Positions 19,632-40,744 of a stretch of 64,000 bases of DNA are shown piece by piece; position 1 is the stretch's first letter, and every line of letters begins with the position of its first letter. This stretch comes from Elusimicrobiaceae bacterium (GTDB lineage: Bacteria > Elusimicrobiota > Elusimicrobia > Elusimicrobiales > Elusimicrobiaceae). The DNA lies in contig JAFXOI010000031.1 in NCBI GenBank assembly GCA_017528825.1, positions 26,033 to 90,032 on the forward strand. The letters run 5' to 3'. A model generated the notes under the pieces. It saw nothing but the letters and a program-made list of their open reading frames with translations. It searched no databases and was not told the DNA's origin. Position numbers and translations under genes: made by a program.

Positions 19632-22600
19632 ATGACAAAACATTTTTGGAAAACTTTGTGTAGCAAGGCGGCCATTGCGGCAGTCTTGCCGTTGTTGTTT
19701 GTGGTAGTGCCGCAATGTGTGCACGCCCAATCGGCCGAAATTCGTTCTGCCGGTGTATATTATATTGACGGCCTAAGTGACATCAACAGTGTATATTGTA
19801 ACTGGGGTGCCGACAATATTTCCAATGCCGGGCAAGCGGCGTACAAGAGCGGTATCGTGGATGTGGCGGCTCATCAAACTGCTGATCCGTGGGATACCTC
19901 GGCCCTTATTGAGTATGATCAACCTTATCCGGCTCCCAATCAGCCCAACAATTATCCCAACCATTGTTTGGCGTTATGCTTTGATGTGTATTGTACCAAT
20001 AAACCCAACGGCGCTACAACTTACTCTATTTCTTTCCCGTTGCAAACCATTCAATTTGAAATTGCCAAATACAATAATTCCAAAGATATCGGTTCTTCCG
20101 AAACTAACCCGGCTGTGCGCACCATTATGGAAAGTATTATTGACAATAATATTTTGGTGGGTGGCGCTACGGGGCCTATGCCCGATACGGATTTATCTAA
20201 GTACATGTGTGCCGCCTATTCGTGCGTAGGTTCTGCAGCCACCTTTGGTGCGACTCAAAGTTGTCCTAACCCTCAATACGAATGTATTGAAAAGTCTGCT
20301 CTTTCTTCTAGCGATATGGGGCCGAACTGTCAAAATCCTCCTTCGGACATTATTAAAAAAGTTACTCATTGCTGTCGTTCATTAAATACGACTGCTTCTA
20401 CCTATGACTATCCTGCGATAACTACTAGGGACGCACAAGATAGTTTTGTCCCCGGGAAAAAAGAAACCGGTGGAGTAGAATATATAGAATGTGGAAATAG
20501 TGTATTGGGTTGTAAAGATGATGGAAGCGGTTGTATTAATGGCCGCGAGACTCCTTGTATTCAACGTTCCATGGGTACCGGTAAAGGATACAATGACCCA
20601 ATCCGCTTCTGCACATCTTGGGACGGTTCATATGAAATTTTAGGCGAATTTGGAAAAACCAACGGGCAATTTGGTTTCCGCGCCAATGTGAAAACCAATT
20701 ATCCCGGTGATAACATCGCTGTAGAAGAAATCGCCATTGACGATACCTTCATTTACCCCAGCGATAACCAATATCCTATTCAGGTAGACGTGACCAACGT
20801 GCACACCGTACGCAGTACGGCTACGGTGGTGGGTTCTATTACGTCTGTCATGGCTACACCTTACACGGTAACCTACCGCCTCAGTAAAGATGCGGATGTC
20901 AGTATCCAGGTATTTGATGCTTCTCATGCGGTGCCGTATACGCAGTCTGACTGGAATCCCAGCGCTACCATGGTAGATGCTATTTCTTACAATGATTCCA
21001 CCAACATCCTGCTTACTCAGCCCGTGCGCCACTTAGTGGATTGGCAGCCGCGCTTAGGCGAAGGGATGAAAGGCTCTGATAAAGACGTGATTTTGCAAGA
21101 GTCCGAAAGCTGGGACGGTCGCGATGACTCCGGCCGCTTATTGCCTGCCAATAACTATTTGATTTCTATCCAAGCCAAGACCCAAGACGAATGGCCGGGC
21201 ACGGATTTCTCCCGTGCGGTTACCCGCCAGCTCAGCTTGGATCCGTTAAAACTAACCGATATTGTGGTGCAAGGGCTCAACAAACAGTCTACCGCCTACG
21301 CCCGTGTCAATTATGTTCCGACGGAAGCATCCACGGTGTACTTTGAAGTATATACGCCGGGCACCACCTTTGCCAGTGAATATACGCGCGGCTTTGAACC
21401 GACCGGTTCTCGCCCGGTAATTGCGAATGGTACCGGTTCCTTGGTCTATTCCAATCACCAACAGCGCAATCGCGGGCTGAGCTACCCCGATAAATGGGAT
21501 GGTTTGTGCCATGTGGCAACCGGTTGTGACTTGGCTTATCCGCGCGGAAAGAAACTACCCTTTACCGGAGACGTGTGGAATGGCACAGCAACTCTCTGTA
21601 CGGACCCGATTTCCGCAGGCGGAAACGCAGGTACAGTATCCGGTCAGAATTGTGTGATCACTTCCCAAGAAGGCGCACCGATGCCGGATGGAGACTATGT
21701 ATATGTACTCTGGGCAGAAGTGCCGTACACGGATCACTATTTTAACGCAGCGGCCTGTTATGGACCGGGTACCCCGCAGTCTGCCGGATGTACCGGAACG
21801 ATTAACTGCAGCGGTAACAACGGTGCCTATACTTGTACTACCACCGTACGCGGAACCACTAATACCTGTTCTACAGCCGGTACCGCGGGTAGCAATGCTG
21901 CAGCTTGTACCGGTGCCTTTACCGGTGTAAAGACCCAACGTTACTATACCGGACACTTGCCTATTGAACGCGGTGTGGTAGATATTACTATTCAACCCGT
22001 TAGCTACGCCACTATCGGTTCCAGCCCGACGGCGTATGGCTTAGATCCGTTTATCTTTAAGTACTCTATTGCCCGTGAAGCTACCGTGAATGCGTATGTC
22101 AAAAATACGGCCGGTGTAAAGGTGAAAACCCTTACCAACGAAGGCGGTAACACCAATGTGGCCCAACAGATGAACACATTAACTTGGGACGGACGCGATG
22201 ATAATGGGCGTATGGTCAGTGCCGGCACCTATATGTTTGTGGTGGAAACCTCGGACCCCATGTTCCCGCAAAGTGTCAAAACCCAAGCGGCTTCTATCTT
22301 CCCGGTGGACTTGTATAGAGTTACGAATGTCTCTACAACGGATGTCTATGGAGACAGCGCGGCTAAAGCAACCATAAGTTATATGCTTTCTAAGGCCATG
22401 AATGTACAGATCAACATATATAATAAGGATGTAGTGGTACCTGTACAAAACACGACAGCCGGTGCACAACAGATTACGCAGGAAACAACCACGGCCAATG
22501 TGCTGGGGTTGCCTGAACTGCCGGGCTTGACCAGTACGGCGGTTCCTGCTACGGTTATCGGCGCAACTTTAGTGGCAGGGGACAGCGTAGGCTCTACCTA

Positions 22601-24608
22601 CTATGTATATACGACCCCGGTGGTAACAGGTAGTACCTATTATTATTACCGTGCTTTGAAATATGTTTCCGCAGTTACTGCCACTACTGAAAACTATGAA
22701 GTTCAGGAAGTGGTGCGCGTGGACGGGACTACTGCCCCGTGGCCGCCGCGCGTCTGCGACAGACAAACCGATGCGGCTTACTTTACAGGCGGATATGTAG
22801 ATCCGACCAAGTTCCCGCAGTGTATTTATGTCAATGACACCAACTTTACCAATTATCCGGCTAACCCCAAAGCAGCCGAGTATAACTATACCGAAGGCGC
22901 CCGCCAAACCTTGGATGTGCGCTTACAGCCGGTAAAAACTTTCAACCGCTCTGCCTTGAAGGCCGGAGACGGCGTAGTGAATATGGAAGAATGGGATGCT
23001 CAATACTTCTATAACCCGACGCCGGTATCTGTGGCCGATGGCGGCAAAAATACATTAGCTGCGGTACAAGCGTGTAAAAATCAAACCGATATTACCAAAT
23101 GTCCGTATGAAATGATTCCGGACGGTACTTATCCGTTGTATATTGCGGCTCGTACCCAAGAGCCGGTGGACGTCTATTACAACCAAACAACAGCCATTCC
23201 GTTCCGCACCGCGGCTGAGGTACTCCCGCAAACCGGTCTGTATGCTACAGATAAACCGGTATACCGGATTAATATCTCTCGTGGGCCGGTGTACTTTATT
23301 GACGGCACGGTGGCGGTGTATCCCAATGCTCCGCAGTTGTACAACGTGTCTTCCGGTCCTATTTTCGTGCCGCCGTATGAGATTAACTTCTCTATTTCCC
23401 GTGCGGCTACGGTGGAAGTAGCTGTGGTGGCCTTGCAAGACGGTTTGTGCACCACCACACGCGATACAGGGTCCTCTTACTCGCGCTTGCCCTACAACAA
23501 TAAGGCAGGGGATGTGTGTAAATTCTTAAGCACCATGACTATTCCCAATACCGCTAACTTTGACCCAAACATTGTTCGTAAGCTGTATTGGGACGGTACC
23601 GATAATAACGGCAAGTATGTCAAGAACGGTAACTATGAAATCCGCTTGACGGCCAAAAACTATCCGGATGAAGGATTGTATCAGCCCACGGTCAAACAGC
23701 TGACCTTGAACGTAGATTTGCTCAAGGTGTATGACTTGCCGGAATCGGAAGCCTACTCTATTAATAAGCGTGGTATAGACATGAAAGTGTCTTACCAGAT
23801 TTCCGTGCCGATGAAAGTGGCCATCCAGATCTTTAAGCCGGGTACCACCATTTACGACTATACAAAAGGTACCTTGCGTGACCCGTCCACCGGACAGGAA
23901 GTAACCGATATCCGCGATGTGCTGGTCAGATCCATTGTGGGTATCCGCCCATCTACCACCTTGATTGAAGAGGTGTGGGATGGTACGGACTATGCCCAAC
24001 AGGGTGTGCCGGACGGTACCTATCCGTTACGCTTTGTAACGGCGTTGAATGGCGCAGATATTGACTCTGTTACCGGAGAAGTGTTGGCCGGTAGCGATGC
24101 GGCCGGTTCCACCGATTATAAGATAAATTACGTGGCTGATACGTATCAGTACGTGAACTTGCATCATGCTACAGTGGCTATCGGTGACGGGGAGTTCGTC
24201 TGCGAAGACTGGGAGAAAACGGTATTCTTCTATCCCAACCCGTTCAAAACAGCCACCGGTACATTAGAAATTACTAAGTTACCAGTGCCCGGTAAAATGT
24301 CTATTAAGATGTATAACTTGGCCGGTGACTTGGTGCGCGAAGGCGGATACACTTGTGTGGATGCTCAAAATATGTCTGTGACAATGGGTAGCTCTCTACA
24401 AGTCAGTCCGGATAATAATGTCAGCAGTACCACTTATACGGGTGGTATGCCGTCCCTGCGTAATGCGGCCCTGCGCTGCTTCTGGGACAAAACCAACGAC
24501 CATGGTAAACGTGTGGCCCGCGGGGTATACTTCGGACTAGTGGATTTCCGTGCTCAAAACGGCAGACAACACTGCCAAAAGGTAGTGAAGATTTTAATTC
24601 CGAGATAA
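19632..24608 (+). CDS. 1658-aa secreted protein with repeated FlgD-like Ig modules, Cys-rich inserts and T9SS-type-A-like C-terminal domain
   Basis: Signal peptide ending AQS. Repeated WDG motifs (e.g. WDGRDDSGRLLPANNY, WDGRDDNGRMVSAGTY, WDGTDNNGKYVKNGNY). C-terminus FYPNPF...MYNLAGDLVR...ARGVYFGLV...KVVKILIPR. Confidence 0.75.
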   Translation: MTKHFWKTLCSKAAIAAVLPLLFVVVPQCVHAQSAEIRSAGVYYIDGLSDINSVYCNWGADNISNAGQAAYKSGIVDVAAHQTADPWDTSALIEYDQPYPAPNQPNNYPNHCLALCFDVYCTNKPNGATTYSISFPLQTIQFEIAKYNNSKDIGSSETNPAVRTIMESIIDNNILVGGATGPMPDTDLSKYMCAAYSCVGSAATFGATQSCPNPQYECIEKSALSSSDMGPNCQNPPSDIIKKVTHCCRSLNTTASTYDYPAITTRDAQDSFVPGKKETGGVEYIECGNSVLGCKDDGSGCINGRETPCIQRSMGTGKGYNDPIRFCTSWDGSYEILGEFGKTNGQFGFRANVKTNYPGDNIAVEEIAIDDTFIYPSDNQYPIQVDVTNVHTVRSTATVVGSITSVMATPYTVTYRLSKDADVSIQVFDASHAVPYTQSDWNPSATMVDAISYNDSTNILLTQPVRHLVDWQPRLGEGMKGSDKDVILQESESWDGRDDSGRLLPANNYLISIQAKTQDEWPGTDFSRAVTRQLSLDPLKLTDIVVQGLNKQSTAYARVNYVPTEASTVYFEVYTPGTTFASEYTRGFEPTGSRPVIANGTGSLVYSNHQQRNRGLSYPDKWDGLCHVATGCDLAYPRGKKLPFTGDVWNGTATLCTDPISAGGNAGTVSGQNCVITSQEGAPMPDGDYVYVLWAEVPYTDHYFNAAACYGPGTPQSAGCTGTINCSGNNGAYTCTTTVRGTTNTCSTAGTAGSNAAACTGAFTGVKTQRYYTGHLPIERGVVDITIQPVSYATIGSSPTAYGLDPFIFKYSIAREATVNAYVKNTAGVKVKTLTNEGGNTNVAQQMNTLTWDGRDDNGRMVSAGTYMFVVETSDPMFPQSVKTQAASIFPVDLYRVTNVSTTDVYGDSAAKATISYMLSKAMNVQINIYNKDVVVPVQNTTAGAQQITQETTTANVLGLPELPGLTSTAVPATVIGATLVAGDSVGSTYYVYTTPVVTGSTYYYYRALKYVSAVTATTENYEVQEVVRVDGTTAPWPPRVCDRQTDAAYFTGGYVDPTKFPQCIYVNDTNFTNYPANPKAAEYNYTEGARQTLDVRLQPVKTFNRSALKAGDGVVNMEEWDAQYFYNPTPVSVADGGKNTLAAVQACKNQTDITKCPYEMIPDGTYPLYIAARTQEPVDVYYNQTTAIPFRTAAEVLPQTGLYATDKPVYRINISRGPVYFIDGTVAVYPNAPQLYNVSSGPIFVPPYEINFSISRAATVEVAVVALQDGLCTTTRDTGSSYSRLPYNNKAGDVCKFLSTMTIPNTANFDPNIVRKLYWDGTDNNGKYVKNGNYEIRLTAKNYPDEGLYQPTVKQLTLNVDLLKVYDLPESEAYSINKRGIDMKVSYQISVPMKVAIQIFKPGTTIYDYTKGTLRDPSTGQEVTDIRDVLVRSIVGIRPSTTLIEEVWDGTDYAQQGVPDGTYPLRFVTALNGADIDSVTGEVLAGSDAAGSTDYKINYVADTYQYVNLHHATVAIGDGEFVCEDWEKTVFFYPNPFKTATGTLEITKLPVPGKMSIKMYNLAGDLVREGGYTCVDAQNMSVTMGSSLQVSPDNNVSSTTYTGGMPSLRNAALRCFWDKTNDHGKRVARGVYFGLVDFRAQNGRQHCQKVVKILIPR

Positions 24609-24627
24609 GTGTAGGAAATAACAAACT

Positions 24628-25590
24628 ATGAAAAATAAAGTTTTAATTGCTTGTTTTGCTCTCGCCTTGGCAGCTCCGGCTGCTTGGGCTGACTCGTATG
24701 CAGATGCCGGTACTAGTGCTAGCGCATTCTTGAAGATTGATGCGGGATCTCCGCGTGCGCAAGCCTTAGGTAACGCGTATGTGTCTATTGCAGAAGGACC
24801 GGAGGCCTTGTTTTGGAACCCGGCCGGTGCCGCTTCCGCTACCACGCGGGAGTTAGCTTTTGCTTATCAAGATTATTTGCAAGGTTATAAGGCACGCACC
24901 TTAGCGTATTTGCAACCTATGGGCAAAACGATTATCGGTGTAACATTCAACTACATGGATATGGACGGCTTTGATTACCGCGATGAATACGGTTATCAAC
25001 AACCTACTGTAGGTAAACCGGTACAGAACTTTGTGGGTAGTTTGTCATTGGCCCGCGGATTTTTCAACCAAGGATTACAACTGGGCGCTACCGCTAAGTA
25101 CATCAATGAAAAATTGGATACCTACCGCTACACCAACGTCGGTTTTGATGTGGGGGCTAAAGGGCGTCCGTGGCATTGGTTAGGTTTAGGTGGTGCCATT
25201 ATTAACATCGGTGACAAAAAAGAAATGCCGCGCGGTTGGCGTGTGGGTGCCGATATTGATACGAAGTATTGGACCATTTCCGGTGAATATATGAAATACC
25301 GCGACGATCAGGGCCGCTACGGGGTTGGTTTAGAAGTACATATTCCGGAAGATTTATTGCAAGTGGCTCGGTTTGATTTGCGCGTAGGTTATTACGATCG
25401 TGAAAGCACCGGTTACAGCGAAAGCAAAAATTTGAAGAGTTTAGGACTTGATAGTACCTCTAAAGTTTCCTTCGGGTTTGGTATTTATAGCTCTGAATTA
25501 TTTGGCTATGGTGCCAGCATTGATTACGCAGTTACCCCGTTTGGGGCTTTAGGTACTTCGCAACAAATTGCGGTATCGGTGCAATTTTAG
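24628..25590 (+). CDS. PorV/PorQ-family (FadL-like) outer-membrane beta-barrel
   Basis: Signal peptide, AFLKIDAGSPRAQALGNAY and ALFWNPAG plug motif, alternating beta-strands, terminal Phe (AVSVQF). Confidence 0.8.
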   Translation: MKNKVLIACFALALAAPAAWADSYADAGTSASAFLKIDAGSPRAQALGNAYVSIAEGPEALFWNPAGAASATTRELAFAYQDYLQGYKARTLAYLQPMGKTIIGVTFNYMDMDGFDYRDEYGYQQPTVGKPVQNFVGSLSLARGFFNQGLQLGATAKYINEKLDTYRYTNVGFDVGAKGRPWHWLGLGGAIINIGDKKEMPRGWRVGADIDTKYWTISGEYMKYRDDQGRYGVGLEVHIPEDLLQVARFDLRVGYYDRESTGYSESKNLKSLGLDSTSKVSFGFGIYSSELFGYGASIDYAVTPFGALGTSQQIAVSVQF

Positions 25591-25639
25591 TATCGCATAG
25601 GAAGCGGTGCTTGAGTTGTTGCGACGGAAGGTGTACAAT

Positions 25640-25834
25640 ATGAATACGATGCACAAAGTAAAAAGCCTGGTCGTAAACAAAAAAGGGCAAACGGCTGTGG
25701 AATATATTATTACAGCTTTTTCGCTTTTTGGGGCTTTCTTAGCGTTTTATGCTTTGTATTCTAATATGGTTCCGCAACAGTTCGACCAAGGAGCCAAAGT
25801 CATTTTGTCAGTATATGACACAAGTAGTAATTAA
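25640..25834 (+). CDS. Flp/TadE-like pilin
   Basis: KKG|QTAVEY followed by a hydrophobic helix. ATG 25640 follows ggaagg; ORF track starts at 25607. Confidence 0.8.
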   Translation: MNTMHKVKSLVVNKKGQTAVEYIITAFSLFGAFLAFYALYSNMVPQQFDQGAKVILSVYDTSSN

Positions 25835-25857: not shown

Positions 25858-26079
25858 ATGAAGTTTATTATCGCCATGCAAAATAAGTTGAATGCTGCCA
25901 AAGCGGCTGCCATCAACAGCTTAAAAAAACAAGAAGGCCAGAACACCATCGAATACATCATTATGTTAGGTGTAGTAGTAGGTATTGCCCTGCTCGTTGG
26001 TACGTTGGTTAAAAACATGATGCCGGAAGTCTTTGAGAACATCAAAGCCAAAATTTTGGGCGGCGTCAACCAAGACTAG
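25858..26079 (+). CDS. flp: Flp (type IVc) pilin, probable major subunit
   Basis: KKQEG|QNTIEYIIMLGVVVGIALLVG, short mature part (about 46 aa), strong SD agggagg. Confidence 0.88.
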   Translation: MKFIIAMQNKLNAAKAAAINSLKKQEGQNTIEYIIMLGVVVGIALLVGTLVKNMMPEVFENIKAKILGGVNQD

Positions 26080-26096: not shown

Positions 26097-26585
26097 ATGA
26101 CAATTTTTCATAGGAGGCATGAGGGGCAGGTAACGGTAGAATTGATGCTCATTCTGCCGGTGCTAATGTTGATGATATTCTTTATCCTAGAATATGGCAA
26201 CATTGCCTATCATACCATTATTGCTAACCATGCTTCCTATGAATTTGCCCGAATCGGCGCTTTAACAGGGGCTAAAAAGCCTAGCGGTAAAGCCAGTACC
26301 GGGCCGATGGTAACAAAGATTAACGCGGCCAAGCAAAAGGTGTTTGGCGCGGATGCATCCCGCATTTCGGTGAAAGTTAAATTGCAAAACACCGGTGTGG
26401 ACCCGATGTATAAAAAACATCGGCATGAAGATGTAATCGTAACGGTGGTATATCCGGTGCGGTTAGCGTTTCCGGGGACTAGTTGGTTACTCGCCAGCGA
26501 GCCGAAACGCAACGGTGTACGCAAAATAGAAGCTACTACGCGTATGCCGGTAGAAAAATTATATGCCGGCTCGGATCCTAAGTGA
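26097..26585 (+). CDS. tadE: TadE/TadF-like pseudopilin
   Basis: HEG|QVTVELMLILPVLMLMIFFILEYG, ASYEFARIGA, V.VTV.YPV. Confidence 0.85.
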   Translation: MTIFHRRHEGQVTVELMLILPVLMLMIFFILEYGNIAYHTIIANHASYEFARIGALTGAKKPSGKASTGPMVTKINAAKQKVFGADASRISVKVKLQNTGVDPMYKKHRHEDVIVTVVYPVRLAFPGTSWLLASEPKRNGVRKIEATTRMPVEKLYAGSDPK

Positions 26586-26644: not shown

Positions 26645-27397
26645 ATGAAAAAAGGAATTATGCTTCCGTTGCTGTTAGCATTCTTAGCAGCTTTGGTTTA
26701 TTGGATGATTGTACACAATGCTGAAAAAAAATTGAATGCTTCTAAGACAGTCAAAACTGTTTTGGTGCCTGTGCGCGATATTAAAGAGCGCGAAGTAATT
26801 AAGCGTGACTACTTGAAACGCATTCAAGTGCCTGCTGCCTATGTGCAAAAAGACGCTTTTACTTATACAACCGATGCAGATTTTGCCAAAATAGACAATG
26901 CCATTGCACGGATTCAAATCCCGAAAGGAAACCAGATTTCCAAATATGCCGTTACCTCGCTTTCTCCCGAGGCCGGTTTGTCCAGTAAAATTCCGGTTCA
27001 GATGAGAGGTTTTGTCATGGTGGTCGATAGCAACGTAGCTAGCATGATTAAACCCGACGATAACGTGGACATCTTGCTCACGTTTGAGGCCCTGATGAAA
27101 ACAGGGGCTCGGCAGAAAGTAACCGTAACGCTACTTCAGAACGTAAAAGTGTTAGGTGTAGGTTCTGACTTGGGACAAGGATTGGATGCCAAAGCGGCCG
27201 CCGCCTTGCGTAACCAAGAGGAAGACGCTTCCGCGTATACAGATACGAGCGCGTTGAGCTTGGCTCTGTCTCCGCGTGATGCACAATACTTAGCCTTGGC
27301 TAAGGAAGAAGGAACGTTATCCGTCATCTTACGTTCTCACGGAGATGTGACGAACTACTTGATGGAAATTGCCACCTTTGAGAAATTATTTTCATAA
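26645..27397 (+). CDS. cpaB: Flp pilus assembly protein CpaB/RcpC
   Basis: N-terminal TM, SAF domain (VLVPVRDIKERE), IKPDDNVDIL, LLQNVKVLGVG, LALSPRDAQYLALA. Confidence 0.9.
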   Translation: MKKGIMLPLLLAFLAALVYWMIVHNAEKKLNASKTVKTVLVPVRDIKEREVIKRDYLKRIQVPAAYVQKDAFTYTTDADFAKIDNAIARIQIPKGNQISKYAVTSLSPEAGLSSKIPVQMRGFVMVVDSNVASMIKPDDNVDILLTFEALMKTGARQKVTVTLLQNVKVLGVGSDLGQGLDAKAAAALRNQEEDASAYTDTSALSLALSPRDAQYLALAKEEGTLSVILRSHGDVTNYLMEIATFEKLFS

Positions 27398-27415: not shown

Positions 27416-28150
27416 ATGAAATTTACTTCTAAACTGACTTTATGGATATTGCTACTGGTGTTAGCTTGCCCTGCCGCATTTGCTAAGAAAACGCATTTGG
27501 TGGCTGTAAGTGCCGACGTGGTAGAAATCGGCGGTACGATGACTTCGGCCAAAGGGTTTGAATGGAACCAAATCTTTGACTTTGAAGAAGCCAACATCCC
27601 GGGTATTTTATCTTTGGGTGAATTTGCCCGTAAGACAGCGGTCATTACCCGTTTACGTTTATCCGAAACGGAAGGGCGGGCGCAGATTTTGTCCAACCCG
27701 AAAATTGTGACCAGTTCCGGTAACAGCGCCAAAATTACGGTAGGTGGTAAAGTGCCTATACCGGTGGTAAATAACCAAGGGGTAGGTTCCCAGTTGGAAG
27801 AATATGGTATCTTGCTAAACGTATTACCTACCATTATTCCGGAAAGAGGGAATATTATTGACTTGCAGGTACAGTTGTCTGTATCTTCAGTAGACTATTC
27901 TCGTACGGTATCCGTCGGTACCGCTACGGCTCCTTCTTTCACCAACCGTGACGTGGAAACCCATGTGGAACTCAATAGCGGGGAAACCTTGGTGATTGGC
28001 GGTTTGAAGAGCAGCTACCGCAACGTTAGTGAAACCCGCGTGCCATTTCTGGGACGCCTTCCGTTAATCGGTTTGTTGTTTAAGTATAAAGACGTAACGG
28101 AAGAACAACGCTCTCTATTCTTGTTTATTACCGTGGAAGTGGTGGAATAA
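27416..28150 (+). CDS. cpaC: Minimal secretin (CpaC/RcpA-like, secretin domain only)
   Basis: Signal peptide followed directly by GRAQILSNPKI...GGKVPIP...YGILLNVLP...LNSGETLVIGGL...VPFLGRLPLIGLLF. Confidence 0.88.
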   Translation: MKFTSKLTLWILLLVLACPAAFAKKTHLVAVSADVVEIGGTMTSAKGFEWNQIFDFEEANIPGILSLGEFARKTAVITRLRLSETEGRAQILSNPKIVTSSGNSAKITVGGKVPIPVVNNQGVGSQLEEYGILLNVLPTIIPERGNIIDLQVQLSVSSVDYSRTVSVGTATAPSFTNRDVETHVELNSGETLVIGGLKSSYRNVSETRVPFLGRLPLIGLLFKYKDVTEEQRSLFLFITVEVVE

Positions 28151-28155
28151 TAATT

Positions 28156-30450
28156 ATGGCAGAAGAACAATTAGAAAACCCGAAAAGCGAAGCAAAAATT
28201 ATCGCATTAAGCTCTCCCAAAGAAGGCGCAGGGAAAACAACCCTGACGCTCAATTTGGCGCTTGGTTGGGCCGGTATTCAAAAGAGACCGGTGTTAATTG
28301 TTCCTCTCGATCCTTTAGCCCGTCAAGAGCATAGCTTTTATTTGGATATTAAAAAGCCGGTCAGCGTGGCTGATATTTTGCGCACGCTCGGCAATGCCAA
28401 CATCGCCGTAGTGGGCGGGTTGTTACGCGGTAAAATTTCCATGTCTCAATGGGGGGTGGGGGTGTTGCCTTTGGGAAATACGCGTGCCCAAATTGCCTCT
28501 ATCAGTCCTAAAATTTTAATTCCCATTCTGTCACGCTTATCGCAAACGTTTGATATTTTCTTGGATGTGGATTCTTCTTTCCCGATGCAGGCGTTTGCTT
28601 TTGATATTGCAGATAAGATTTTTTGGGTGTCCAATGCTACACGTACGCATCTGAACTCCACCGTGCAGTTGTTTAATGATTACAAAGAACAGCGCTATCC
28701 TATGGAACGGGTAAGTGTCATTTGTAACCAGTACGACATGCCGGGATCTATCCCTTACGAAGAAGTGGAAAAGTTTTATAACTCCTTAGGCCGCGGTATT
28801 GATGTATTTTTACCTTGGGATGAGGGGATTATGACCACTTCCAATCAGAAAGGGGTGGAAATTATTTCAAATCCGCAGTCTGAGTGGATTAAGGGCTTGC
28901 GTTTAGTATTGGCTAAAATCCGTGATTTAACGCCCGCACCTAAAGATTGGCACGCTTCTGTATCAGATGAAGAATTTACGCAAGCAGCCAAAGAAATTTG
29001 GGCTCCCATTATGGCAGGCGGAGTGGGAGTTGGAGCTGGGCCGGAAAGCCATATTGCAGTGGAAGAAGAAGGAGAAGCCGGCAAAACGAAACTATCTTTC
29101 TGGGATGATTTGAAACAAAAAATCCACAAAGAAGTAGTCCGCACGCTGGAAGTGGAACGTATTGTGATTAGTGATGAAAGTTCCGCCAGTGCACAAACCC
29201 GCAAACGGGTGGCGGCTATTGTGGACGACATTTTGCAAAAGCAGCCCAATTTGCAGTTCTCCCGCGATCAACGTACTCGCTTTGCTTCTGAATTGTTAGA
29301 TGAAATTTTGGGGTTAGGGCCCTTGGAAACCTTGATGCGCGATGCCAGCGTTACCGAAATCATGGTCAACGCCTTTGACAAGATTTTTATCGAGCAAAAA
29401 GGTAAGTTGACCTTAACCAAATACAAATTTAGAAATAACGAACAAGTGGTGCAGGTAATCAAGCGTATTGTATCTCCGTTAGGACGTCGTATTGACGAAT
29501 CCGTACCACTCGTAGACGCCCGTTTGAAAGACGGTTCCCGTGTCAACGCTATTATTGCGCCGTTGGCGGTGTCCGGACCTACCTTGACGATTCGTCGTTT
29601 CTCGCAAAAACCTTTCGGACCGGAAGATTATTTCCGCTTTGGTACGATTAGTCCGGAATGTATGGAATTTTTACAGAAATGCGTAAAAATTCGTAAAAAC
29701 ATTATTGTGTGCGGTGGTACCGGTACCGGTAAAACTACATTCTTGAACGCGCTTTCCGGTTATATTGCCAATGATGAACGTATCATTACGGTAGAAGATA
29801 CGGCCGAGCTTCGTTTGCAACAGCCACACTGGGTATCGTTGGAAAGCCGTCCGCCCAACGTGGAAGGAAAAGGTGCTATTACCATTCAAGATTTAGTTAA
29901 GAACTGCTTGCGTATGCGTCCGGACCGTATTGTAGTAGGGGAGTGCCGCGGTGCAGAAGCACTGGACATGTTACAGGCCATGAACACCGGTCACGAAGGT
30001 TCTCTGACCACTATTCACGCCAATACCCCGCGTGACGGACTATCTCGTTTGGAAGCCATGTGTATGCAGGCCAGCGGAGATTTACCCATTTTTGCTATTC
30101 GCGAAATGATTTCGTCAGCCGTAAATATGATTGTACAGCTGTCTCGTTTTTCGGACGGCTCCAGAAAGGTAACCTACATCACGGAAATGCACGGACAAAA
30201 AGACGGGATGATTCAATCTACCGACTTGTTCCGCTATGTGCAGACCGGAGTAGATGAGAATGGTAAAGTGCAGGGGATGTTCGCCCCGACAGGCAATTTG
30301 CCTACTTTCTACAATGATTTTAAGGCAAAAGGGGTACCGGTGCCGGAAGATGTGTTCTTGAAAGGGGCTATTAAGTTTGACGAAGATGATAACCCCATCT
30401 TGCCGCAATCCGAACAAACCCCACCGCCACCGCCGGGAGTACACGGATAA
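28156..30450 (+). CDS. cpaF: CpaE/TadZ (ParA-like) fused to CpaF/TadA assembly ATPase
   Basis: N-terminal [10 protein letters not shown]-terminal [41 protein letters not shown]. Confidence 0.92.
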
Positions 30451-30454
30451 ACCC

Positions 30455-32080
30455 ATGAAGAAGATAGGATGGCTGATTAGTTTGTTGATACTGGTGTTGG
30501 GAGTGTTAGCTCCGCGGCCGGTGTCTGCGCGCGCTTTGGACCAAAATGACAAACGCAAAATAGAGTGTGCGATGTTTAAGATGTATGCGCTGAGTAACTA
30601 TTTTAACGTCGACATGCCAGCCGATCAAAAACAATATAAGTATCCACAATCCTGTGGAAAAAATCTAGCCGGAAAAACTATTAAGATGCCTGATTGGTTT
30701 CCTAAAGAATTGGAAGCCATGGACAAATTAAAAGTGGTCTACATCCAAGGGGAAGGAACCTTGAGTGAAGCGACTCTTTGGTACCGTACTTTTGCTAACG
30801 TATATGCTTTCTTAGACCGGGCCAACAATGCTTTGGATCCCAGTCAACCGGTAGTTCTGGAACAGCTTTCTCGCGGTTATGTAAGCAACAGAATTAAATT
30901 GGTTTCTAACTTAGACCGTTTAAATAAAGAACTGGTACGTGGTCAAGAAGTGTACAGCATGAAAGATAGTATGCAGGGACGCGGCCGGTCTATGTTGGCC
31001 ACCTTGGAATTTATGAACCGTGAGTTTTATAGCACGATTGAGTCTTTTACCAGTCCTGCTGCTCAAAAGGAGAATAAATACCGCCAATCTGTGATGGCTG
31101 TGGTTACACTGGCTAATCAACTGTGGAGCGAGTTCCGTGCGGCTCCGTTGCCGGCCAATCCGCCGGATGCCAAGATTTATCAAACTACCGATGGTGAACG
31201 CTTATTTAGCACCTTGCTAATGCTTTTGGGTGCTTTCCTCATTGGTTACGCGGTTTATCTATTGATGGAAGCCAAGAGCGATGAAATTAATCGTGGTTGG
31301 GCCCAGTACCGTGAAAAGAGTATGATTTGGGCCGAAGATTTCAACCGTCAATTTTTGACCATTGATGTAAAGTATATTGTATTTGGAACGTTGGCTGTCT
31401 TTGCGTTGATGGGGTTATTGATGGGAATATCTATGGGTGGTTTTGGCGGAGTATTGATATTTATTCTATTTGTGATAGTGGGTGCTTATGCCGGAATCCG
31501 TATGCCCAAAGTAGTGTTGGATAAACTTAAAAAGAGCCGCGGGGTCAAGATTAATGGCCAGCTGATGGATGCCTTAATTTTGCTATCCAACTCTTTGCGC
31601 TCCGGTATGGATATTGTGCAGGGGTTTGAGTTGGTGTCACACGATATGCGTCCGCAGATTGCCGATGAATTTGGCCTGGTGATTAAGAATTATCAATTAG
31701 GTACGCCGTTTGAAAAGGCCTTGGAAGGCCTGGACGAACGGGTGGAAAGCCGTATGCTTTCTTATACGATTAAAGCCATTATCATTCAACGACAGGTGGG
31801 TGGAAACTTGACGGTTATTTTCTCACGCTTGGTGGAAAATATTCGTGAAGAAAGTAAGTTGGAAGAAAAATTGGAAGCTATGACTGCCCAACAAAAAATT
31901 CAGTCCATTGTGGTCAGTATTATGCCGGTCATTATGCTAGGGGTTATGTTCTTGTTCCGCCCCGATGAGATGATTGGCTTTTACACCACTCCTGTAGGCA
32001 TTTTTGTGCTGTTCTTCTGCTTTGTGTGGATTATGATTGGTATGAAACTCATCCAAAAATTGGGCGAGGTGAGGGTATAA
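30455..32080 (+). CDS. tadB: TadB-like platform protein with N-terminal exported domain
   Basis: Signal peptide MKKIGW...VSA, about 230-aa soluble domain, then TMs and the T2SSF domain QLMDALILLSNSLRSG...QRQVGGNL. Confidence 0.85.
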   Translation: MKKIGWLISLLILVLGVLAPRPVSARALDQNDKRKIECAMFKMYALSNYFNVDMPADQKQYKYPQSCGKNLAGKTIKMPDWFPKELEAMDKLKVVYIQGEGTLSEATLWYRTFANVYAFLDRANNALDPSQPVVLEQLSRGYVSNRIKLVSNLDRLNKELVRGQEVYSMKDSMQGRGRSMLATLEFMNREFYSTIESFTSPAAQKENKYRQSVMAVVTLANQLWSEFRAAPLPANPPDAKIYQTTDGERLFSTLLMLLGAFLIGYAVYLLMEAKSDEINRGWAQYREKSMIWAEDFNRQFLTIDVKYIVFGTLAVFALMGLLMGISMGGFGGVLIFILFVIVGAYAGIRMPKVVLDKLKKSRGVKINGQLMDALILLSNSLRSGMDIVQGFELVSHDMRPQIADEFGLVIKNYQLGTPFEKALEGLDERVESRMLSYTIKAIIIQRQVGGNLTVIFSRLVENIREESKLEEKLEAMTAQQKIQSIVVSIMPVIMLGVMFLFRPDEMIGFYTTPVGIFVLFFCFVWIMIGMKLIQKLGEVRV

Positions 32081-32082
32081 GT

Positions 32083-32967
32083 ATGGACATGTTATCACTA
32101 ATTCTCAATCTCATTTTACTGTTTGGAGCCGTGTCTTTATTTTTTGCGGTGCTGGCCATTTTCGCCCCAAAAGAGGAAGGCGGTCAGATTGTAGACGTCG
32201 CTGCCCAACGTTTTAAGTCTTCTTCCAGTTTTGCCAGTTTGCAACCCGAAACTAAGTTTTGGGACCGGGTTGCTGTATTCTGCTTAAATACCTTCCATCT
32301 GGAAAAACCGTTGGAAGAAATTCATATGCAGTTAGGTAGCCCGGACTATCCGCAACCGGTGAATATTCTGTATTGGAAAGTAGCCTGTGCGATTGGGGTG
32401 CCGCTGGCCATCATGATTATGTTCCAAACCGTTTTTGGAATACTTTTTGTACCGGTAGGTTTTTATTTGCCGGATATGATGTTGAAAAGTAAGATCCAAA
32501 AACGACAAGCCGAAATTTTGGGGAACTTTTCTACTACCGTAGATTTGGCCGCTCTGATTATTGAATCTGGTTTGGATTACTTAACCGCTTTTGAACGTAT
32601 TATCAGTATTGCAAAGGTGAAGACGGTATTGGAAGAAGAACTGGAAAAAACCCTCAATGAAATTAAGTTGGGTTATTCCCGCCGTGAAGCGTTGGAACGC
32701 TTTGCAAACCGTACCGGCGTACAGGAAGTGCGCTCTTTGGTCGGCTTGATTATTCAATCCGATGAGTTGGGTACCAGTTTGGTGGATTTGTTGCGTAACT
32801 TCTCCTCCGATTTGCGAAGTCGTCGTATGAGCCGTGCCGAAAAACTGGCCGCACAGGCTTCTACAAAAATGTTGTTTCCGTTATTTGTATTTATTTTCCC
32901 GACAATCTTTATTCTGATTTTGTCGCCGATGATTAAAGGTCTGTTGTCGCAAGGATTAAGTTTTTAA
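32083..32967 (+). CDS. tadC: TadC platform protein
   Basis: DLAALIIESGLD, LIIQSDELGTSL, AEKLAAQASTKMLFPLFVFIFP. Confidence 0.9.
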   Translation: MDMLSLILNLILLFGAVSLFFAVLAIFAPKEEGGQIVDVAAQRFKSSSSFASLQPETKFWDRVAVFCLNTFHLEKPLEEIHMQLGSPDYPQPVNILYWKVACAIGVPLAIMIMFQTVFGILFVPVGFYLPDMMLKSKIQKRQAEILGNFSTTVDLAALIIESGLDYLTAFERIISIAKVKTVLEEELEKTLNEIKLGYSRREALERFANRTGVQEVRSLVGLIIQSDELGTSLVDLLRNFSSDLRSRRMSRAEKLAAQASTKMLFPLFVFIFPTIFILILSPMIKGLLSQGLSF

Positions 32968-32977
32968 GAGGATATTT

Positions 32978-34363
32978 ATGAAAAAATCTTTATTATTTTT
33001 ATGTATCTTGTCTGTTTCTCTTACCTCAGCGGCGGCTCCGTTCCGCCAGCCCAATCCCATTCGTCAACACGGAAAAGAAGAGGGGATGATGTTGGACTTG
33101 AATAAAATTACGCTGGGTACGCTCAATGATGTGGAAGAAAAGAAACAATATCTTTCCACCGTACAACTGGAGAAACAGCGTATCCAAAACTACATGTTGC
33201 ATCAGGTGTATGAAGATGCTTATACCCTGTACCGCCGCGGGGATTATCAACGGGCACAGGAAATGGCGCAAACCATTTTGAGTATTGACCCCAATTATAC
33301 GCAGGCCTCTACGCTAGCCAAACAAGCCGGTAATATGGGGGCCTATGGTACGACTTCGGAAGCCGAAGTTATCGATGCTAAATTTCAGGAAGCCAACCGG
33401 ATGTATGATTCCGGGCGCTTGGTAGAAGCTAATGAAAAATTAGATGAGATTTTAACCCTGCAACCGCACAATTCAAAAGCATTATCTTGGAAACATCGTA
33501 TCGATCGTGATATTGCCCAAGAATATGCCCGTCGCGGTAATGTGGCCTACGACAAAAAAGATTACAAAGAAGCGTTGGATAATTGGTATAACGCTTTGCT
33601 CATTCGTAAAGATGATCCGAATTTAGTCAATAAAATTGCCCAAACGGAAAATCAATTGCGCCAACAACAAGTAAAAGATGCCATGGAAAAAGCAATGGAT
33701 TACTACAACAAAGGGCAATACTTGGAATCTTACTCTACTTTTGAACGGATTACTAAAATCCAACCCGGAGATCAACGGGTACAGAAATACATGAGCCAGT
33801 TAAAAGACGAGATTGCCACCAGTTATTACGATGCTGGAAATAAGTCTTATGGAATGCAAAAATATGACAGCGCAGTCACCTACTATACCAATGCTAAAAA
33901 GTGGGGGGCTGATGCTAATCAAATGGACCAGTTGATCAAACGCGCTCGCAATGCCAAAGAGAATGCCTTGCGCCGCAAACAAGAAGCCGCCGCTAAAGCT
34001 GCGGAAGACGCGAAAAAGAAGATAGAGGAAGAGGCTAAAGGACCGGAGGAGGAAGAACCGATTGAAACCGTGCCGGTGGAAGGTAATACCGGCGGTTTAA
34101 CACCGCTTACTCCGGGAACAGCTCCTTCTTTGGGTCCGGATAGTAATACAACCACAGACGGCATTGGCGGAGCGACTGGCCGCGTGTCGGAAGAAGCCAG
34201 AGAAGCCTCTAAACAGAAATATCTGGAAGGGTTGGATGCATTTAACCAAGACGACTACGAACGGGCACGCCAAGCCTGGATTGTGGCCAAAAGGTTGGAC
34301 CCAGGCAATACAGATGCTGATTCCGGTTTGCGTAAAGTGGAAGAATTAATCGGCATTCGCTAA
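32978..34363 (+). CDS. Exported multi-TPR protein (TadD/CpaO-like position)
   Basis: Signal peptide, many TPR units (AYTLYRRGDYQRA, ILSIDPNY), Pro/Gly/Thr linker, final TPR. Confidence 0.75.
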   Translation: MKKSLLFLCILSVSLTSAAAPFRQPNPIRQHGKEEGMMLDLNKITLGTLNDVEEKKQYLSTVQLEKQRIQNYMLHQVYEDAYTLYRRGDYQRAQEMAQTILSIDPNYTQASTLAKQAGNMGAYGTTSEAEVIDAKFQEANRMYDSGRLVEANEKLDEILTLQPHNSKALSWKHRIDRDIAQEYARRGNVAYDKKDYKEALDNWYNALLIRKDDPNLVNKIAQTENQLRQQQVKDAMEKAMDYYNKGQYLESYSTFERITKIQPGDQRVQKYMSQLKDEIATSYYDAGNKSYGMQKYDSAVTYYTNAKKWGADANQMDQLIKRARNAKENALRRKQEAAAKAAEDAKKKIEEEAKGPEEEEPIETVPVEGNTGGLTPLTPGTAPSLGPDSNTTTDGIGGATGRVSEEAREASKQKYLEGLDAFNQDDYERARQAWIVAKRLDPGNTDADSGLRKVEELIGIR

Positions 34364-34375
34364 GCAGGAGAGAAT

Positions 34376-35488
34376 ATGAAACTGACATCTAAGTGGACCT
34401 TGTGGTTTGTATTGGTATCGTTGTATGCTGCCATTATCGGCGGTCTGTTTTATTATAACTTGTTCAAATTTGTGTTTGACAAAAAACTGCAAAATGAAAT
34501 GGTGGAAATGGTACGTTTCCGCGCGCCCCTTTTGGTGCAAAGTTTGGCGGCTCGTCCTCGTAGTGAAGCCACGTTCCGTGAAGCAGAGCTGATGAAAGAA
34601 TGGAAACGCAACGATGACCGCATTAAAACGTTGGTGTATTTGAATGACGATGGATCCATTCGCTGGCATGAAAATACGCAATTTGTCAAAATGTCTTATT
34701 CAGACTATAACAATGAAGTGGTATTTGACACCCCTGTTGTCCCGCAGGCTATTCGGGAACGGACCCCTAAGGCGATTATGTTTGACGAGGGGGATTATTA
34801 TGATATGGCTATTCCGCTAATGGCCAAAGATGCGGTGGCAGGCGTCGTTAACCTTACTGTTTCCCGGGCCAGTGCCAAAGCACTAATCCGCCAATCTATG
34901 GTGCGTTATGCGGTGGGAGCATTTATCATGATCCTGCTTATCGGCGGTGTGTTGTACCTGTTCTTGTTGCTCAAAATTATCCGTCCTTTGGAGGCTTTGA
35001 AAGACGGAGTGGATGCTGTCTCTTTGAACCGGCTGGACCTAATTTATCCGGAACGTTCGGATGAAATTGGCAGTGTGGCGGCAGCTATTACATCGTTACT
35101 GGCCAGAATTAAAGAAGAAATGAAAGGCTTAGAGAATGTTGAAATCATGTCTCTGGAAAAGGAGCAAAAATGGTGGAAAACTATTTTGGCAGTTACGGTG
35201 CCGCGCGGATCGAGAGCTTTAGTCGTCGACGAAAACAATAACATTTTATATACCAATTTCGAAATGAATCTAAAGAAAACGGGTACCATCCATTTGTTAG
35301 ATGTTTTTGACGGGCGTCAACAGAGTATTATTCAAGTGGTAGGAGAAGCCATGGAACATCCGGGCAAAGTATTGCGCGGCAAGGTGGAGAACCAAAATGT
35401 TCCGTGTATTGTTAAAGCGGTTCAACTACCCGATGATGCCGGCAAAAACCGGATTGTACTTGTGCTGGAACCGGAAAAAACTTTATAA
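34376..35488 (+). CDS. Membrane sensor-like protein (TM-periplasmic-TM-HAMP-PAS-like), no kinase domain
   Basis: Two TMs, HAMP (RPLEALKDG...RSDEIGSVA), C-terminal ALVVDENNNILYTN. No H-box. Confidence 0.7.
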   Translation: MKLTSKWTLWFVLVSLYAAIIGGLFYYNLFKFVFDKKLQNEMVEMVRFRAPLLVQSLAARPRSEATFREAELMKEWKRNDDRIKTLVYLNDDGSIRWHENTQFVKMSYSDYNNEVVFDTPVVPQAIRERTPKAIMFDEGDYYDMAIPLMAKDAVAGVVNLTVSRASAKALIRQSMVRYAVGAFIMILLIGGVLYLFLLLKIIRPLEALKDGVDAVSLNRLDLIYPERSDEIGSVAAAITSLLARIKEEMKGLENVEIMSLEKEQKWWKTILAVTVPRGSRALVVDENNNILYTNFEMNLKKTGTIHLLDVFDGRQQSIIQVVGEAMEHPGKVLRGKVENQNVPCIVKAVQLPDDAGKNRIVLVLEPEKTL

Positions 35489-36832: not shown

Positions 36833-38722
36833 ATGGTGAAGGGAAAGCAAACAGGCAGTTTATTTCGTAAAGCGGTAATTGCACTTAGTTTTGTGACAAT
36901 CGTGCCTATTTTGCTGATTGGATGGTATGTGTTGCGCATTAACAATAAGTTGTTGCAAAGTGAAATTTTAGATAAGCAACGCACCATGGCCCACCGGATT
37001 TCCTTTTTAATTTCCGAGTCCGTCAGCCGGCAATCTCAATTTATTTCTATCTTTAGCGATTTACATTCCGTACTGTCAGACCATTTAACTTCCATTGACC
37101 AAGAGGATTTGGAGTATTTACGCAAGCGCAACCCGGACATTGTGCATTTACTGATTTTAGACCGTCGCGGAAATCAATTATTTCACTCGGGAACCTCGGG
37201 ACATTTCTTAAATTACAAGGCAGAACTTGCCCCTATTTTGAAGACGTGTATTCAAGAAGGGCAGGAATATGTGGGTTCTATCCAGCGTCATAACGGGCAT
37301 ATGTATGTGCTCATGGCATATCCGTTACAAGCCGCTAATTCCTCCCGCAACGGTCAGGTATTGGTGGCAGAGATTGATTTGGAAGGATTGGGAAAGGCAC
37401 TGGAAAAAATATATTCCGATAATATGCAAGTGGCTGTTTTAACAGATGAAGGGGAATTGATTTCTTATTCCGGCGTATCAGGAGGACTGGTATCAGATGA
37501 AGAATTGCCGCTTCTTTCTCAACTACAGGCGATGAAACAGGCCTTAGAGGAGAAAAGCGACGGTCGTGTACATCTTCAAACAGGGGGAAATTGGTTAGCC
37601 AGTCAGACACCGGTGTCTGGACTAAATTGGACGGTTTTAGTCTATCAACCCGATCATACCGTTTGGACATTGCTACTGGAAAGCACCGTTCATTCCGTGT
37701 GGAATCTGGTGGTCATTTTGTTGGCGGTGGCGGTGTTTGTAGTAGGCGTAACCTATGTGGTGTTAAGACCCATCGTTCAGCCGGTACAACGCTTGCAGGA
37801 AGCAGCTGTTAAACTGGAACAAGAAGAAGATTATATTCCCACAGAAGCAGATTTAATTATTCCGAATAATGAAATTGGAGAGTTGGCTCGTGTATTTTTA
37901 CAAATGACGGTCGTATTGCAAGTGCGCAAAAATGCTTTGCTTTCTGCCCAAAAAGAATTGTCCGCCATGAATAAAGCTTTGGAACAGCGGGTAGAACAAC
38001 GTACCGTAGAATTGCACAAAGCCACCAGCGAATTAGTGAAGGCGGAACGGTTGGCAGCCATTGGTCAGATGGCTTCCATTATCAGCCACGAGATTCGCAA
38101 TCCGTTGGCGGTAATCAGCAATGCCACCCGCTTAATCAAAATTATTCAACCGCCCACGGATCCAAAACTGATCAAACAGTTTTCTATTATTGAAGCGGAA
38201 ATTCGCCAAGCTAATAGTATTATCAATGAGGTCTTGGGGTTTGCCCGCAGCCGTGATATGATTTTGAGTACGGTTGATTTGAATAGCTATCTGCATGACT
38301 TGCTGGTTTCTTTCCCCTGGCCGGCTCATGTGCGTTTACAAGAAGAGCTTGACCCGGAAAGCGTACGATTAAAAGTGGACAGTGAAGAAATAAAACAAGC
38401 CTTGCGCAATATCTTGGCCAATGCGTGTGAAGCTATGCAAGAAGGCGGCCGTTTAACGGTGGGGACCCAAGTAGGAAAACAGGTTGTTTGTATTTATATA
38501 GGCGATGAAGGACCGGGCGTTCCGGAAGAGTTGAAGGAGAAGATATTTTCTCCGTTCTTTACCACTAAGGCCCGCGGTACAGGGTTGGGGTTAGCCGTAG
38601 TGCGCAAAGCAGTCACGCGGCATAAAGGTAAATTATTTGTGCATAATTTACCCGACAAAGGAGCCATTTTTGAAATTTATTTACGAATTTATAAGAAGCA
38701 GGGAGATACTCGCTATGGATAA
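36833..38722 (+). CDS. Membrane sensor histidine kinase (Cache-like, HAMP, HisKA, HATPase)
   Basis: Two TMs, HAMP, SHEIRNPL, NILANACEAM, DEGPG, FFTTKARGTGLGL. Confidence 0.93.
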   Translation: MVKGKQTGSLFRKAVIALSFVTIVPILLIGWYVLRINNKLLQSEILDKQRTMAHRISFLISESVSRQSQFISIFSDLHSVLSDHLTSIDQEDLEYLRKRNPDIVHLLILDRRGNQLFHSGTSGHFLNYKAELAPILKTCIQEGQEYVGSIQRHNGHMYVLMAYPLQAANSSRNGQVLVAEIDLEGLGKALEKIYSDNMQVAVLTDEGELISYSGVSGGLVSDEELPLLSQLQAMKQALEEKSDGRVHLQTGGNWLASQTPVSGLNWTVLVYQPDHTVWTLLLESTVHSVWNLVVILLAVAVFVVGVTYVVLRPIVQPVQRLQEAAVKLEQEEDYIPTEADLIIPNNEIGELARVFLQMTVVLQVRKNALLSAQKELSAMNKALEQRVEQRTVELHKATSELVKAERLAAIGQMASIISHEIRNPLAVISNATRLIKIIQPPTDPKLIKQFSIIEAEIRQANSIINEVLGFARSRDMILSTVDLNSYLHDLLVSFPWPAHVRLQEELDPESVRLKVDSEEIKQALRNILANACEAMQEGGRLTVGTQVGKQVVCIYIGDEGPGVPEELKEKIFSPFFTTKARGTGLGLAVVRKAVTRHKGKLFVHNLPDKGAIFEIYLRIYKKQGDTRYG

Positions 38723-39836: not shown

Positions 39837-39868
39837 GCTAGGTGAATTTTGAACGGGAGCAAAATAAT

Positions 39869-40555: not shown

Positions 40556-40558
40556 ACG

Positions 40559-40744
40559 TTGTTTATGCGCCGAATAAAAGCATTGCTGCGCCTGGCGCGT
40601 AGAAGTCGCCGCGGCCAAGCTACCATCGAATATGTGCTGATGCTTAGCAGCATATTGGTAATCTTGTCGGCTTTTATTTCGGCTTTTCACAAAGATATTG
40701 TGAAATGGTTTTTTATGTTTATCGGGCAATTATTGGCCAAATGA
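40559..40744 (+). CDS. Flp-like minor pilin
   Basis: RRG|QATIEY followed by a hydrophobic helix. Confidence 0.82.
   Translation: MFMRRIKALLRLARRSRRGQATIEYVLMLSSILVILSAFISAFHKDIVKWFFMFIGQLLAK

Follow-up and report, generated by a model that had tools for sequence, protein, structure and literature searches.

How little of a secretin is enough for a natural outer-membrane pore is the question raised by a gene in a stretch of DNA of 64,000 nucleotides (nt) from an Elusimicrobiaceae bacterium (assembly GCA_017528825.1, contig JAFXOI010000031.1, positions 26,033 to 90,032 of the forward strand), which is called here the window and in whose coordinates positions are given unless another locus is named. 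In published accounts secretins possess extensive periplasmic N-domains, which bring them into line with the inner-membrane machine, and often a C-terminal tail for a pilotin (PMC10499894; this and the other sources cited here, except PMC12307814, were available to us in part). The gene in question lies in an operon for a Tad/Flp-type pilus machine and encodes a pre-protein of 244 amino acids (aa). According to the original prediction, its product is a secretin of about 221 aa in the mature form, whose core begins a few residues after the signal peptide, too early for N0-N3, BON or S domains to fit in. The flanking stop codons, the Pfam matches and the superposition of a structural model on a solved secretin, all described below, bear out this description, and we consider it probable (about 0.8) that the gene product serves a Tad/Flp-type pilus machine as its outer-membrane pore and is cut down to the secretin core. 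What is new is a conserved Tad secretin of this kind, next to a CpaB from which the corresponding clasp is gone. The gene (an open reading frame, ORF) and its parts are located as follows:

27416..28150, + strand: bare secretin gene, 244-aa pre-protein (ORF; PF00263 at 141.7 bits; best solved relative RcpA, 8odn, E 1.1e-22)
27416..27484, + strand: signal peptide, aa 1-23 (hydrophobic helix at aa 4-16 in the model; AxA site read by eye, with putative cleavage after AFA)
27491..28147, + strand: complete secretin domain, aa 26-244, with outer and inner barrel, gate motifs and an amphipathic helical loop (AHL) at ~aa 208-225 (by structural superposition)

On its 5' side the ORF is preceded by a TAA codon in frame, 3 nt before the ATG, and by the end of cpaB at 27397; on its 3' side it is closed by its own TAA (28148-28150), and the ATG of tadZ-tadA follows at 28156. 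Because of these in-frame stops and the adjoining genes, the protein cannot be extended at either terminus without a frameshift. PF00263 (Secretin) is the sole Pfam family in the ORF (141.7 bits with a cut-off of 27.5, E 2.3e-41, aa 84-244), and at the reporting threshold of E<=0.01 that was used for the proteins of the window the 244 residues contain no match to pil_N (PF13629, VirB9-like), BON or N3. The signal peptide is separated from the first barrel strand by 2-3 residues, and the mature protein would be ~221 aa long if cleavage occurs after AFA, as read by eye. At the opposite end, the C-terminus is equivalent to residue 371 of RcpA, located on the last barrel strand, with the stop codon immediately after it and no S-domain. 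The residues that are invariant in the alignment A1 include G110/P114 and P210/P216/G219/F222, which we take to be the gate and AHL motifs, respectively. A lipobox-like Cys18 could suggest a self-piloting lipoprotein; however, this residue does not recur in the orthologue from Elusimicrobium minutum in alignment A1, and because close orthologues lack it we do not call the protein a lipoprotein.

The structure of the secretin was modelled with AlphaFold2 from alignment A1 (mean pLDDT 77). The model is all-beta from residue 28, and the double beta-barrel secretin fold is predicted to span the entire domain. In a Foldseek search all 40 matches at E<=0.001 were secretins, as were the top 28 rows obtained with VIA-align (Z 10.6-14.9), in which residues 26-244 of the model superpose on residues 131-371 of RcpA 8odn (Z 13.2, rmsd 4.6 Å, 196 aligned residues), and the model also matches f1 pIV 172-403 (Z 14.5) and XcpQ 322-571 (Z 12.7). 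RcpA comprises an N-domain (28-112), a 20-aa linker, the secretin domain, built from residue 131, and an S-domain (381-411) (PMC10499894). Since the modelled residues 26-244 cover the entire solved secretin domain of RcpA, the model argues that the mature protein is the secretin domain alone, without N-domain, linker, N3 or S-domain. We also considered segment 24-83, which precedes the Pfam match, as a reduced N-domain, and rejected this reading, because in the superposition on RcpA 131-371 the segment is a part of the secretin barrel.

The short length of the protein is far beyond chance, because it is shared by 117 of the 120 closest homologues listed (236-248 aa) and is kept across the phylum. 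The close homologues include a protein of E. minutum annotated as 'RcpA subunit' (65% identity) and proteins of Candidatus Avelusimicrobium. Among 201 genomes of Elusimicrobiota, PF00263 is present in 189, and the bare secretin was matched in 169 at E<=1e-20, with frames measured from stop to stop. Of the 150 matches listed (40 more exist), 140 are in frames of 222-300 aa and 149 have no internal stop, and the short form is kept at 29-95% identity. Ten of the listed frames are longer; two of these, of 509 aa, are artefacts in which the open frame overlaps cpaB (L007), and some of the others (301-364 aa) probably resemble L020, with PF13629 before the secretin domain. Short representatives of 238-276 aa were also recovered among 1.84 billion cluster representatives: those with a signal peptide are 37-96% identical to Elusimicrobiota references according to BLAST, and four without it (P0189, P0219, P0244 and P0255) are 30-43% identical, so that judging from sequence the short representatives probably belong to Elusimicrobiota or nearby. 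In the ESM Atlas only Elusimicrobiota secretin clusters were found, plus one fragment cluster at 0.89. The bare form is thus the norm in the phylum Elusimicrobiota.

Outside this phylum the situation is different. With an alignment of CpaF/TadA (A3), 80 ATPase loci of many different phyla were collected, 39 of which have a secretin within 10 kb. Six of these secretins were set aside (L032, L033, L043 and L074 are partial, L039 has a C-terminal match only and L053 is probably truncated), and among the 33 complete ones only three are bare, namely L013 (Elusimicrobiales), L024 (Ca. Avelusimicrobium) and L021, and one (L020, 315 aa) consists of pil_N and the secretin domain, while the remaining 29 have 141-410 aa ahead of the secretin domain. 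In five genomes, from Myxococcota, Planctomycetota, Pseudomonadota, Bdellovibrionota and Acidobacteriota, none of the 22 matches to PF00263 is in a frame below 459 aa. In 61 genomes of Pseudomonadota the shortest frame has 405 aa for the 150 matches listed out of 186; in 41 genomes of Planctomycetota two frames of <=300 aa, each abutting the end of a contig, occur for the 150 matches listed out of 213, so that no clear planctomycete frame of this size is found among those listed. Bare secretins were therefore rare outside Elusimicrobiota in the phyla sampled, and the suspicion that N-domain-less secretins of this size might simply be common in ordinary Tad loci is not borne out. One protein considered as a bare form, from Phycisphaerales (L053:7425-8447, 340 aa), was rejected: it has no signal peptide, its start resembles the end of an N-domain and it is probably 5'-truncated, with a frameshift or an assembly break upstream being likely.

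In a tree of 59 secretin domains, obtained by a quick maximum-likelihood search, all bare forms are on one side of a branch with SH-aLRT support of 81, together with the pil_N-bearing L020, L008 (316 aa) and the long-branch L025, and the other side has the long Tad secretins from other phyla. Among secretins of Tad loci the bare forms make up a group of their own (SH-aLRT 81, with a single PilQ-like outgroup and a quick search), and the tree would fit a single, early loss of the N-domain. The nearest relatives in the tree are small Tad-type secretins composed of pil_N and the secretin domain (312-335 aa; L020 and frames in families f15 and f18). L020 differs from the bare secretin in having PF13629 at aa 24-90 and a CpaB with a hairpin-like tail. 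Extensions at the other end also occur among Tad secretins: a protein from Omnitrophota (L027:696-2366) has 143 aa after the secretin domain.

The organism itself has not dispensed with N-domain secretins. In the source assembly (1.53 Mb, 41 contigs) a second secretin is encoded (L001, G000:C6:110586-114065), with 529 aa and the conventional STN + Secretin_N + Secretin layout, which indicates that N-domain secretins are still made, and it is directly followed by an ATPase with MshEN and T2SSE domains (MshE/PilB-type). This protein has the only Secretin_N match of the genome. A stand-alone pil_N (PF13629) was not found over the cut-off in the genome, the best match, at 13 bits, being to an unrelated 300-aa repeat protein on another contig.

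The bare secretin gene is located in the middle of a conserved block of genes in the order OMP - flp - flp - tadE - cpaB - secretin - tadZA - tadB - tadC - TPR - p370, where OMP is an outer-membrane-type protein. The genes other than the secretin are:

24628..25590, + strand: outer-membrane-type protein of 320 aa, first gene of the conserved block (weak UPF0164 match; position kept in L005, L006, L007 and L012)
25607..25834, + strand: Flp-like pilin 1, 75-aa ORF (no Pfam match; kept position and phmmer matches in related loci)
25858..26079, + strand: Flp-like pilin 2, 73 aa (weak, sub-threshold Flp1_like and Class_IIIsignal matches; kept in related loci)
26097..26585, + strand: TadE-like minor pilin (PF07811, E 6.9e-12)
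26645..27397, + strand: CpaB/RcpC homologue of 250 aa, ending 20 aa past the RcpC domain (PF16976 at aa 111-230; alignment A4)
28156..30450, + strand: TadZ-TadA fusion ATPase of 764 aa (CbiA/ParA-type domain at aa 16-227, T2SSE at aa 386-665)
30455..32080, + strand: TadB-like platform protein of 541 aa with a ~250-aa N-terminal periplasmic helical extension (T2SSF at aa 374-499; AlphaFold2 pLDDT 82)
32026..32967, + strand: TadC-like platform protein (T2SSF)
32978..34363, + strand: TPR protein in the TadD position (TPR families; position conserved)
34376..35488, + strand: conserved membrane protein of 370 aa (p370), last gene of the conserved block (weak HAMP match)

The secretin thus adjoins cpaB/rcpC and tadZ/tadA and is accompanied by Flp pilins, as in a Tad locus, and the same gene order is present in all four class-level relatives compared (L005, L006, L007 and L012), including a complete genome of 1.64 Mb. 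The fusion of TadZ (ParA/MinD-type) with TadA is kept phylum-wide, in frames of 634-879 aa; a TadZA fusion from Bdellovibrio has been reported in a 2026 preprint, of which a part was available.

If the pore has no periplasmic domains, the next question is how it may be connected to the inner-membrane platform, and here its upstream neighbour is instructive. In Tad machines the periplasmic alignment ring is known to be formed by CpaB/RcpC (PMC12307814; PMC13170226). In P. aeruginosa a dodecameric RcpC ring grips the N-domain of RcpA by a C-terminal beta-hairpin and the linker that precedes it (PMC12307814), while in Caulobacter a separate protein, CpaI, which folds like the N-domain of RcpA, connects CpaC with the CpaB hairpin (PMC13170226); the authors of the latter work point out that Tad systems vary in the linkage of their two membrane complexes (PMC13170226). 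The protein encoded in the window has a hydrophobic N-terminus and the RcpC domain (PF16976, E 2e-17, aa 111-230), which place it among the CpaB proteins; when compared by sequence with solved structures it had no RcpC match, the best being an unrelated proteolipid at E 0.65. Its tail after PF16976 has 20 aa, and in six of six class-level loci the tail, likewise delimited with Pfam, has 20-22 aa, compared with 36-398 aa in 24 loci with longer secretins. In alignment A4 the terminal hairpin of the 'V.VIRG' type is absent from all seven class-level CpaBs (the six loci and L007); this motif is found in the CpaB of L020, L009, L078, L040, L037 and L067 and is absent from that of the window, which has neither the C-terminal linker nor the hairpin. 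Judging from the sequences, both halves of the known clasp of hairpin and beta-sandwich are missing here, from which it would follow that the coupling to the inner-membrane platform is built differently. A complex prediction with two copies of the secretin (aa 24-244, A1) and the periplasmic part of CpaB (aa 30-250, A4) gave a score of 0.00, which is neutral. In some Tad loci of the proteobacterial type, CpaB is extended with or followed by beta-flower/DUF3659 repeats (491-642 aa), just upstream of the secretin (L015:6534-8009, L017:299-991 and L018:5822-7750).

The original prediction had assigned the periplasmic conduit to other proteins acting in trans, for example the additional domain of TadB or the TPR protein. 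The TadB extension is real: its ~250 aa comprise a signal-anchor followed by a predicted helical bundle with small hairpins (AlphaFold2, pLDDT 82) and contain two conserved Cys-containing motifs. However, the prediction overlooked CpaB/RcpC, and the distribution of the extension is limited: it occurs only in class-level relatives (seven of seven loci examined), while TadB at other loci with a bare secretin lacks it (L011, 286 aa; L021, 287 aa; family f12, 269-280 aa). A Foldseek search of the extension against the PDB returned nothing at E<=0.001, the best matches being four-helix bundles of FAT domains at 0.17, so the bundle has no informative structural match and its role as the conduit is not sustained. 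As to the TPR protein, it sits in the position of TadD, but the S-domain by which RcpA touches TadD is missing from the bare secretin. From its position just upstream and its known role, CpaB would be the likeliest periplasmic partner.

A pore of this type might work as follows. After export directed by the Sec signal peptide, the double-barrel secretin domain with its gates and AHL would multimerise into a gated ring and let the Flp filament pass, as known for the family. The CpaB ring would then abut the periplasmic rim of the barrel directly; this stacking is the likeliest arrangement, although we put it at somewhat short of an even chance. Alternatively, lineage-specific parts (the periplasmic helical domain of TadB, the TPR protein and p370) might couple the membranes, or there might be no stable link. 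The bare form itself would have arisen by early loss of a pil_N-type N-domain in the lineage. Taken further, these considerations suggest, as a tentative idea, that the Tad machine of Elusimicrobiota follows a different trans-envelope plan, with a self-sufficient core of ~220 aa that does without N-domain, S-domain and the canonical pilotin contact, a CpaB without the clasp, possible involvement of the TadB domain, a coupling that is either undescribed or not stable, and, in one family, the core, now outside the operon, as the only secretin of the cell.

Three other explanations have to be weighed against the reduced pore. The missing periplasmic domains may be supplied in trans, by a CpaI-like beta-sandwich protein, the TadB extension or the TPR protein, so that the canonical conduit would be rebuilt from separate pieces. 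CpaI of Caulobacter, which joins CpaC to the CpaB hairpin, is a precedent (PMC13170226), and the TadB extension conserved in all seven class-level loci and the TPR protein in the TadD position are at hand as candidates; yet no PF13629 protein rises over the cut-off in the genome, where the best match has 13 bits, CpaB has no hairpin with which it could grip such a domain, and the extension is missing from the bare-secretin loci L011, L021 and f12 and is modelled as a helical bundle, for which Foldseek returned nothing at E<=0.001, all of which makes this explanation rather unlikely. Still less probable is that the bare secretin serves as a general-purpose pore shared by several type IV filament machines, or as an autonomous channel. 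This idea draws on family f12, whose members carry the gene away from Tad genes, in a conserved housekeeping context (three of three loci), and in many of whose small genomes it is the sole PF00263 match; against it, the gene is placed between cpaB and tadZA in the window, in L005, L006, L007 and L012 (four of four class-level relatives) and in L013 and L024, and the other machine of the genome has its own conventional secretin beside an MshE/PilB-type ATPase.

The possibility that the short ORF results from gene decay or a faulty gene call (the remnant of a pseudogene, an incorrect start or a frameshift) is suggested by its length, about half of that typical of secretins, and by the probably 5'-truncated look-alike L053, whose 340 aa have no signal peptide. 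We regard it as very improbable, as stops lie on both sides of the ORF, which is packed closely into the operon and endowed with its own signal peptide, its core secretin motifs are all conserved, and its length is kept in homologues of 29-95% identity, 149 of the 150 listed being free of internal stops. There are, on the other hand, observations that weigh against the reduced pore, or against its pairing with a CpaB that lost the clasp. The model has low confidence at aa 55-73; the phylum-survey counts rest on 150 matches listed per survey, and stop-to-stop frames overestimate gene length in GC-rich genomes, where bare forms could hide. The clade support of 81 is modest and was obtained with one outgroup, which leaves the direction, loss or gain of the N-domain, weakly supported. 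The co-loss of the two halves of the clasp is not strict, as L009 (family f11) combines a bare secretin of 260 aa with a CpaB that has a hairpin-like tail, and in L021 and family f12 the CpaB tails have 45-53 aa. A core-only secretin also goes beyond the tested minimum, because the engineered minimal PulD keeps N3 and the S-domain; multimerisation and the production of a pilus are predicted from the family. Finally, the evidence for transcription is weak: a contig of 178 nt equals 27667-27844 at full identity in a bovine-gut metatranscriptome library and others lie over flp2-tadE and tadZ, the RNA runs X18, X19 and X20 cover scattered short pieces (uncovered parts being uninformative), and the libraries possibly contain DNA.

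The reduced pore can be compared with several known systems. RcpA of P. aeruginosa (8odn), the solved protein that it matches best in sequence and whose secretin domain superposes on it in full, has an operon setting alike, after rcpC/cpaB and before tadZ/tadA, but possesses in addition the VirB9-like N-domain (28-112), the 20-aa linker and the S-domain (381-411) that contacts the pilotin TadD (PMC10499894), all three of which the bare secretin lacks. CpaC, CpaI and CpaB of Caulobacter crescentus are similar in that the module linking the secretin with CpaB need not belong to the secretin (PMC13170226); however, Caulobacter keeps a separate CpaI, gripped by the CpaB hairpin, whereas here neither a pil_N-like protein nor the hairpin is detectable. 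KilC of Myxococcus xanthus is called 'uniquely short' and has no N0 domain, in a Tad-like killing apparatus without TadD (PMC8460266); it belongs to another phylum, has other accessory genes, and its likeness to the bare secretin is by published description only, its length not being given in the paper text searched or in 12 of the 23 supplementary files (PMC8460266). An engineered PulD (28-42/259-660), stripped of N0-N2, still multimerises and inserts (PMC4604470), but it is an artificial construct that retains N3 as well as the S-domain, while the secretin of Elusimicrobiota is natural and has neither. The many Tad systems of Elusimicrobia were noticed by Denise et al. (PMC6668835), the available part of which does not mention secretin length. 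Apart from the remark on KilC, no natural core-only secretin was found in the literature searched, most subscription journals lying outside its coverage.

The bare secretin offers a natural test of the minimum that a secretin needs for folding, multimerising and reaching the outer membrane. With ~24 kDa per subunit it is also a compact pore for structural work, which is practical since Elusimicrobium minutum is cultivated. It extends the recent view that Tad systems link their two membrane complexes differently (PMC13170226), and the general picture of type IV filament machines is unchanged by it. Should the different trans-envelope plan prove true, the protein would count as the smallest secretin in nature and serve as a minimal model of how secretins assemble.

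In family f12 the gene for the bare secretin stands apart from the pilus genes. In all three loci (L003:8937-9632, L004:8346-9077 and L010:8094-8798) it is found in the order proS - permease - lpd-like - gcvT - secretin - two ORFs that match no Pfam family, and the Tad core of the family (L095 and L096) consists of cpaB-tadZA-tadB-tadC, without a secretin in between. In the complete genome G031 the orphan bare secretin is the sole PF00263 match and lies 185 kb from the Tad core. From this separation it follows that a bare secretin can work unlinked, perhaps as a shared pore.

The conserved block in the window is flanked on both sides by further genes. The region 19632-25590 encodes a secreted protein of 1658 aa with FlgD_ig and CHU_C-type (type IX signal-like) matches, followed by the 320-aa outer-membrane-type protein with which the block begins. 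On the 3' side of the operon, the region 36833-42392 encodes, as read from translations only, a histidine kinase, a hybrid response regulator/kinase and a LuxR-type regulator, and after these a protein of 386 aa that matches no Pfam family and another TadE-like protein, of 176 aa; these genes may be regulators and extra minor pilins of the same Tad system.

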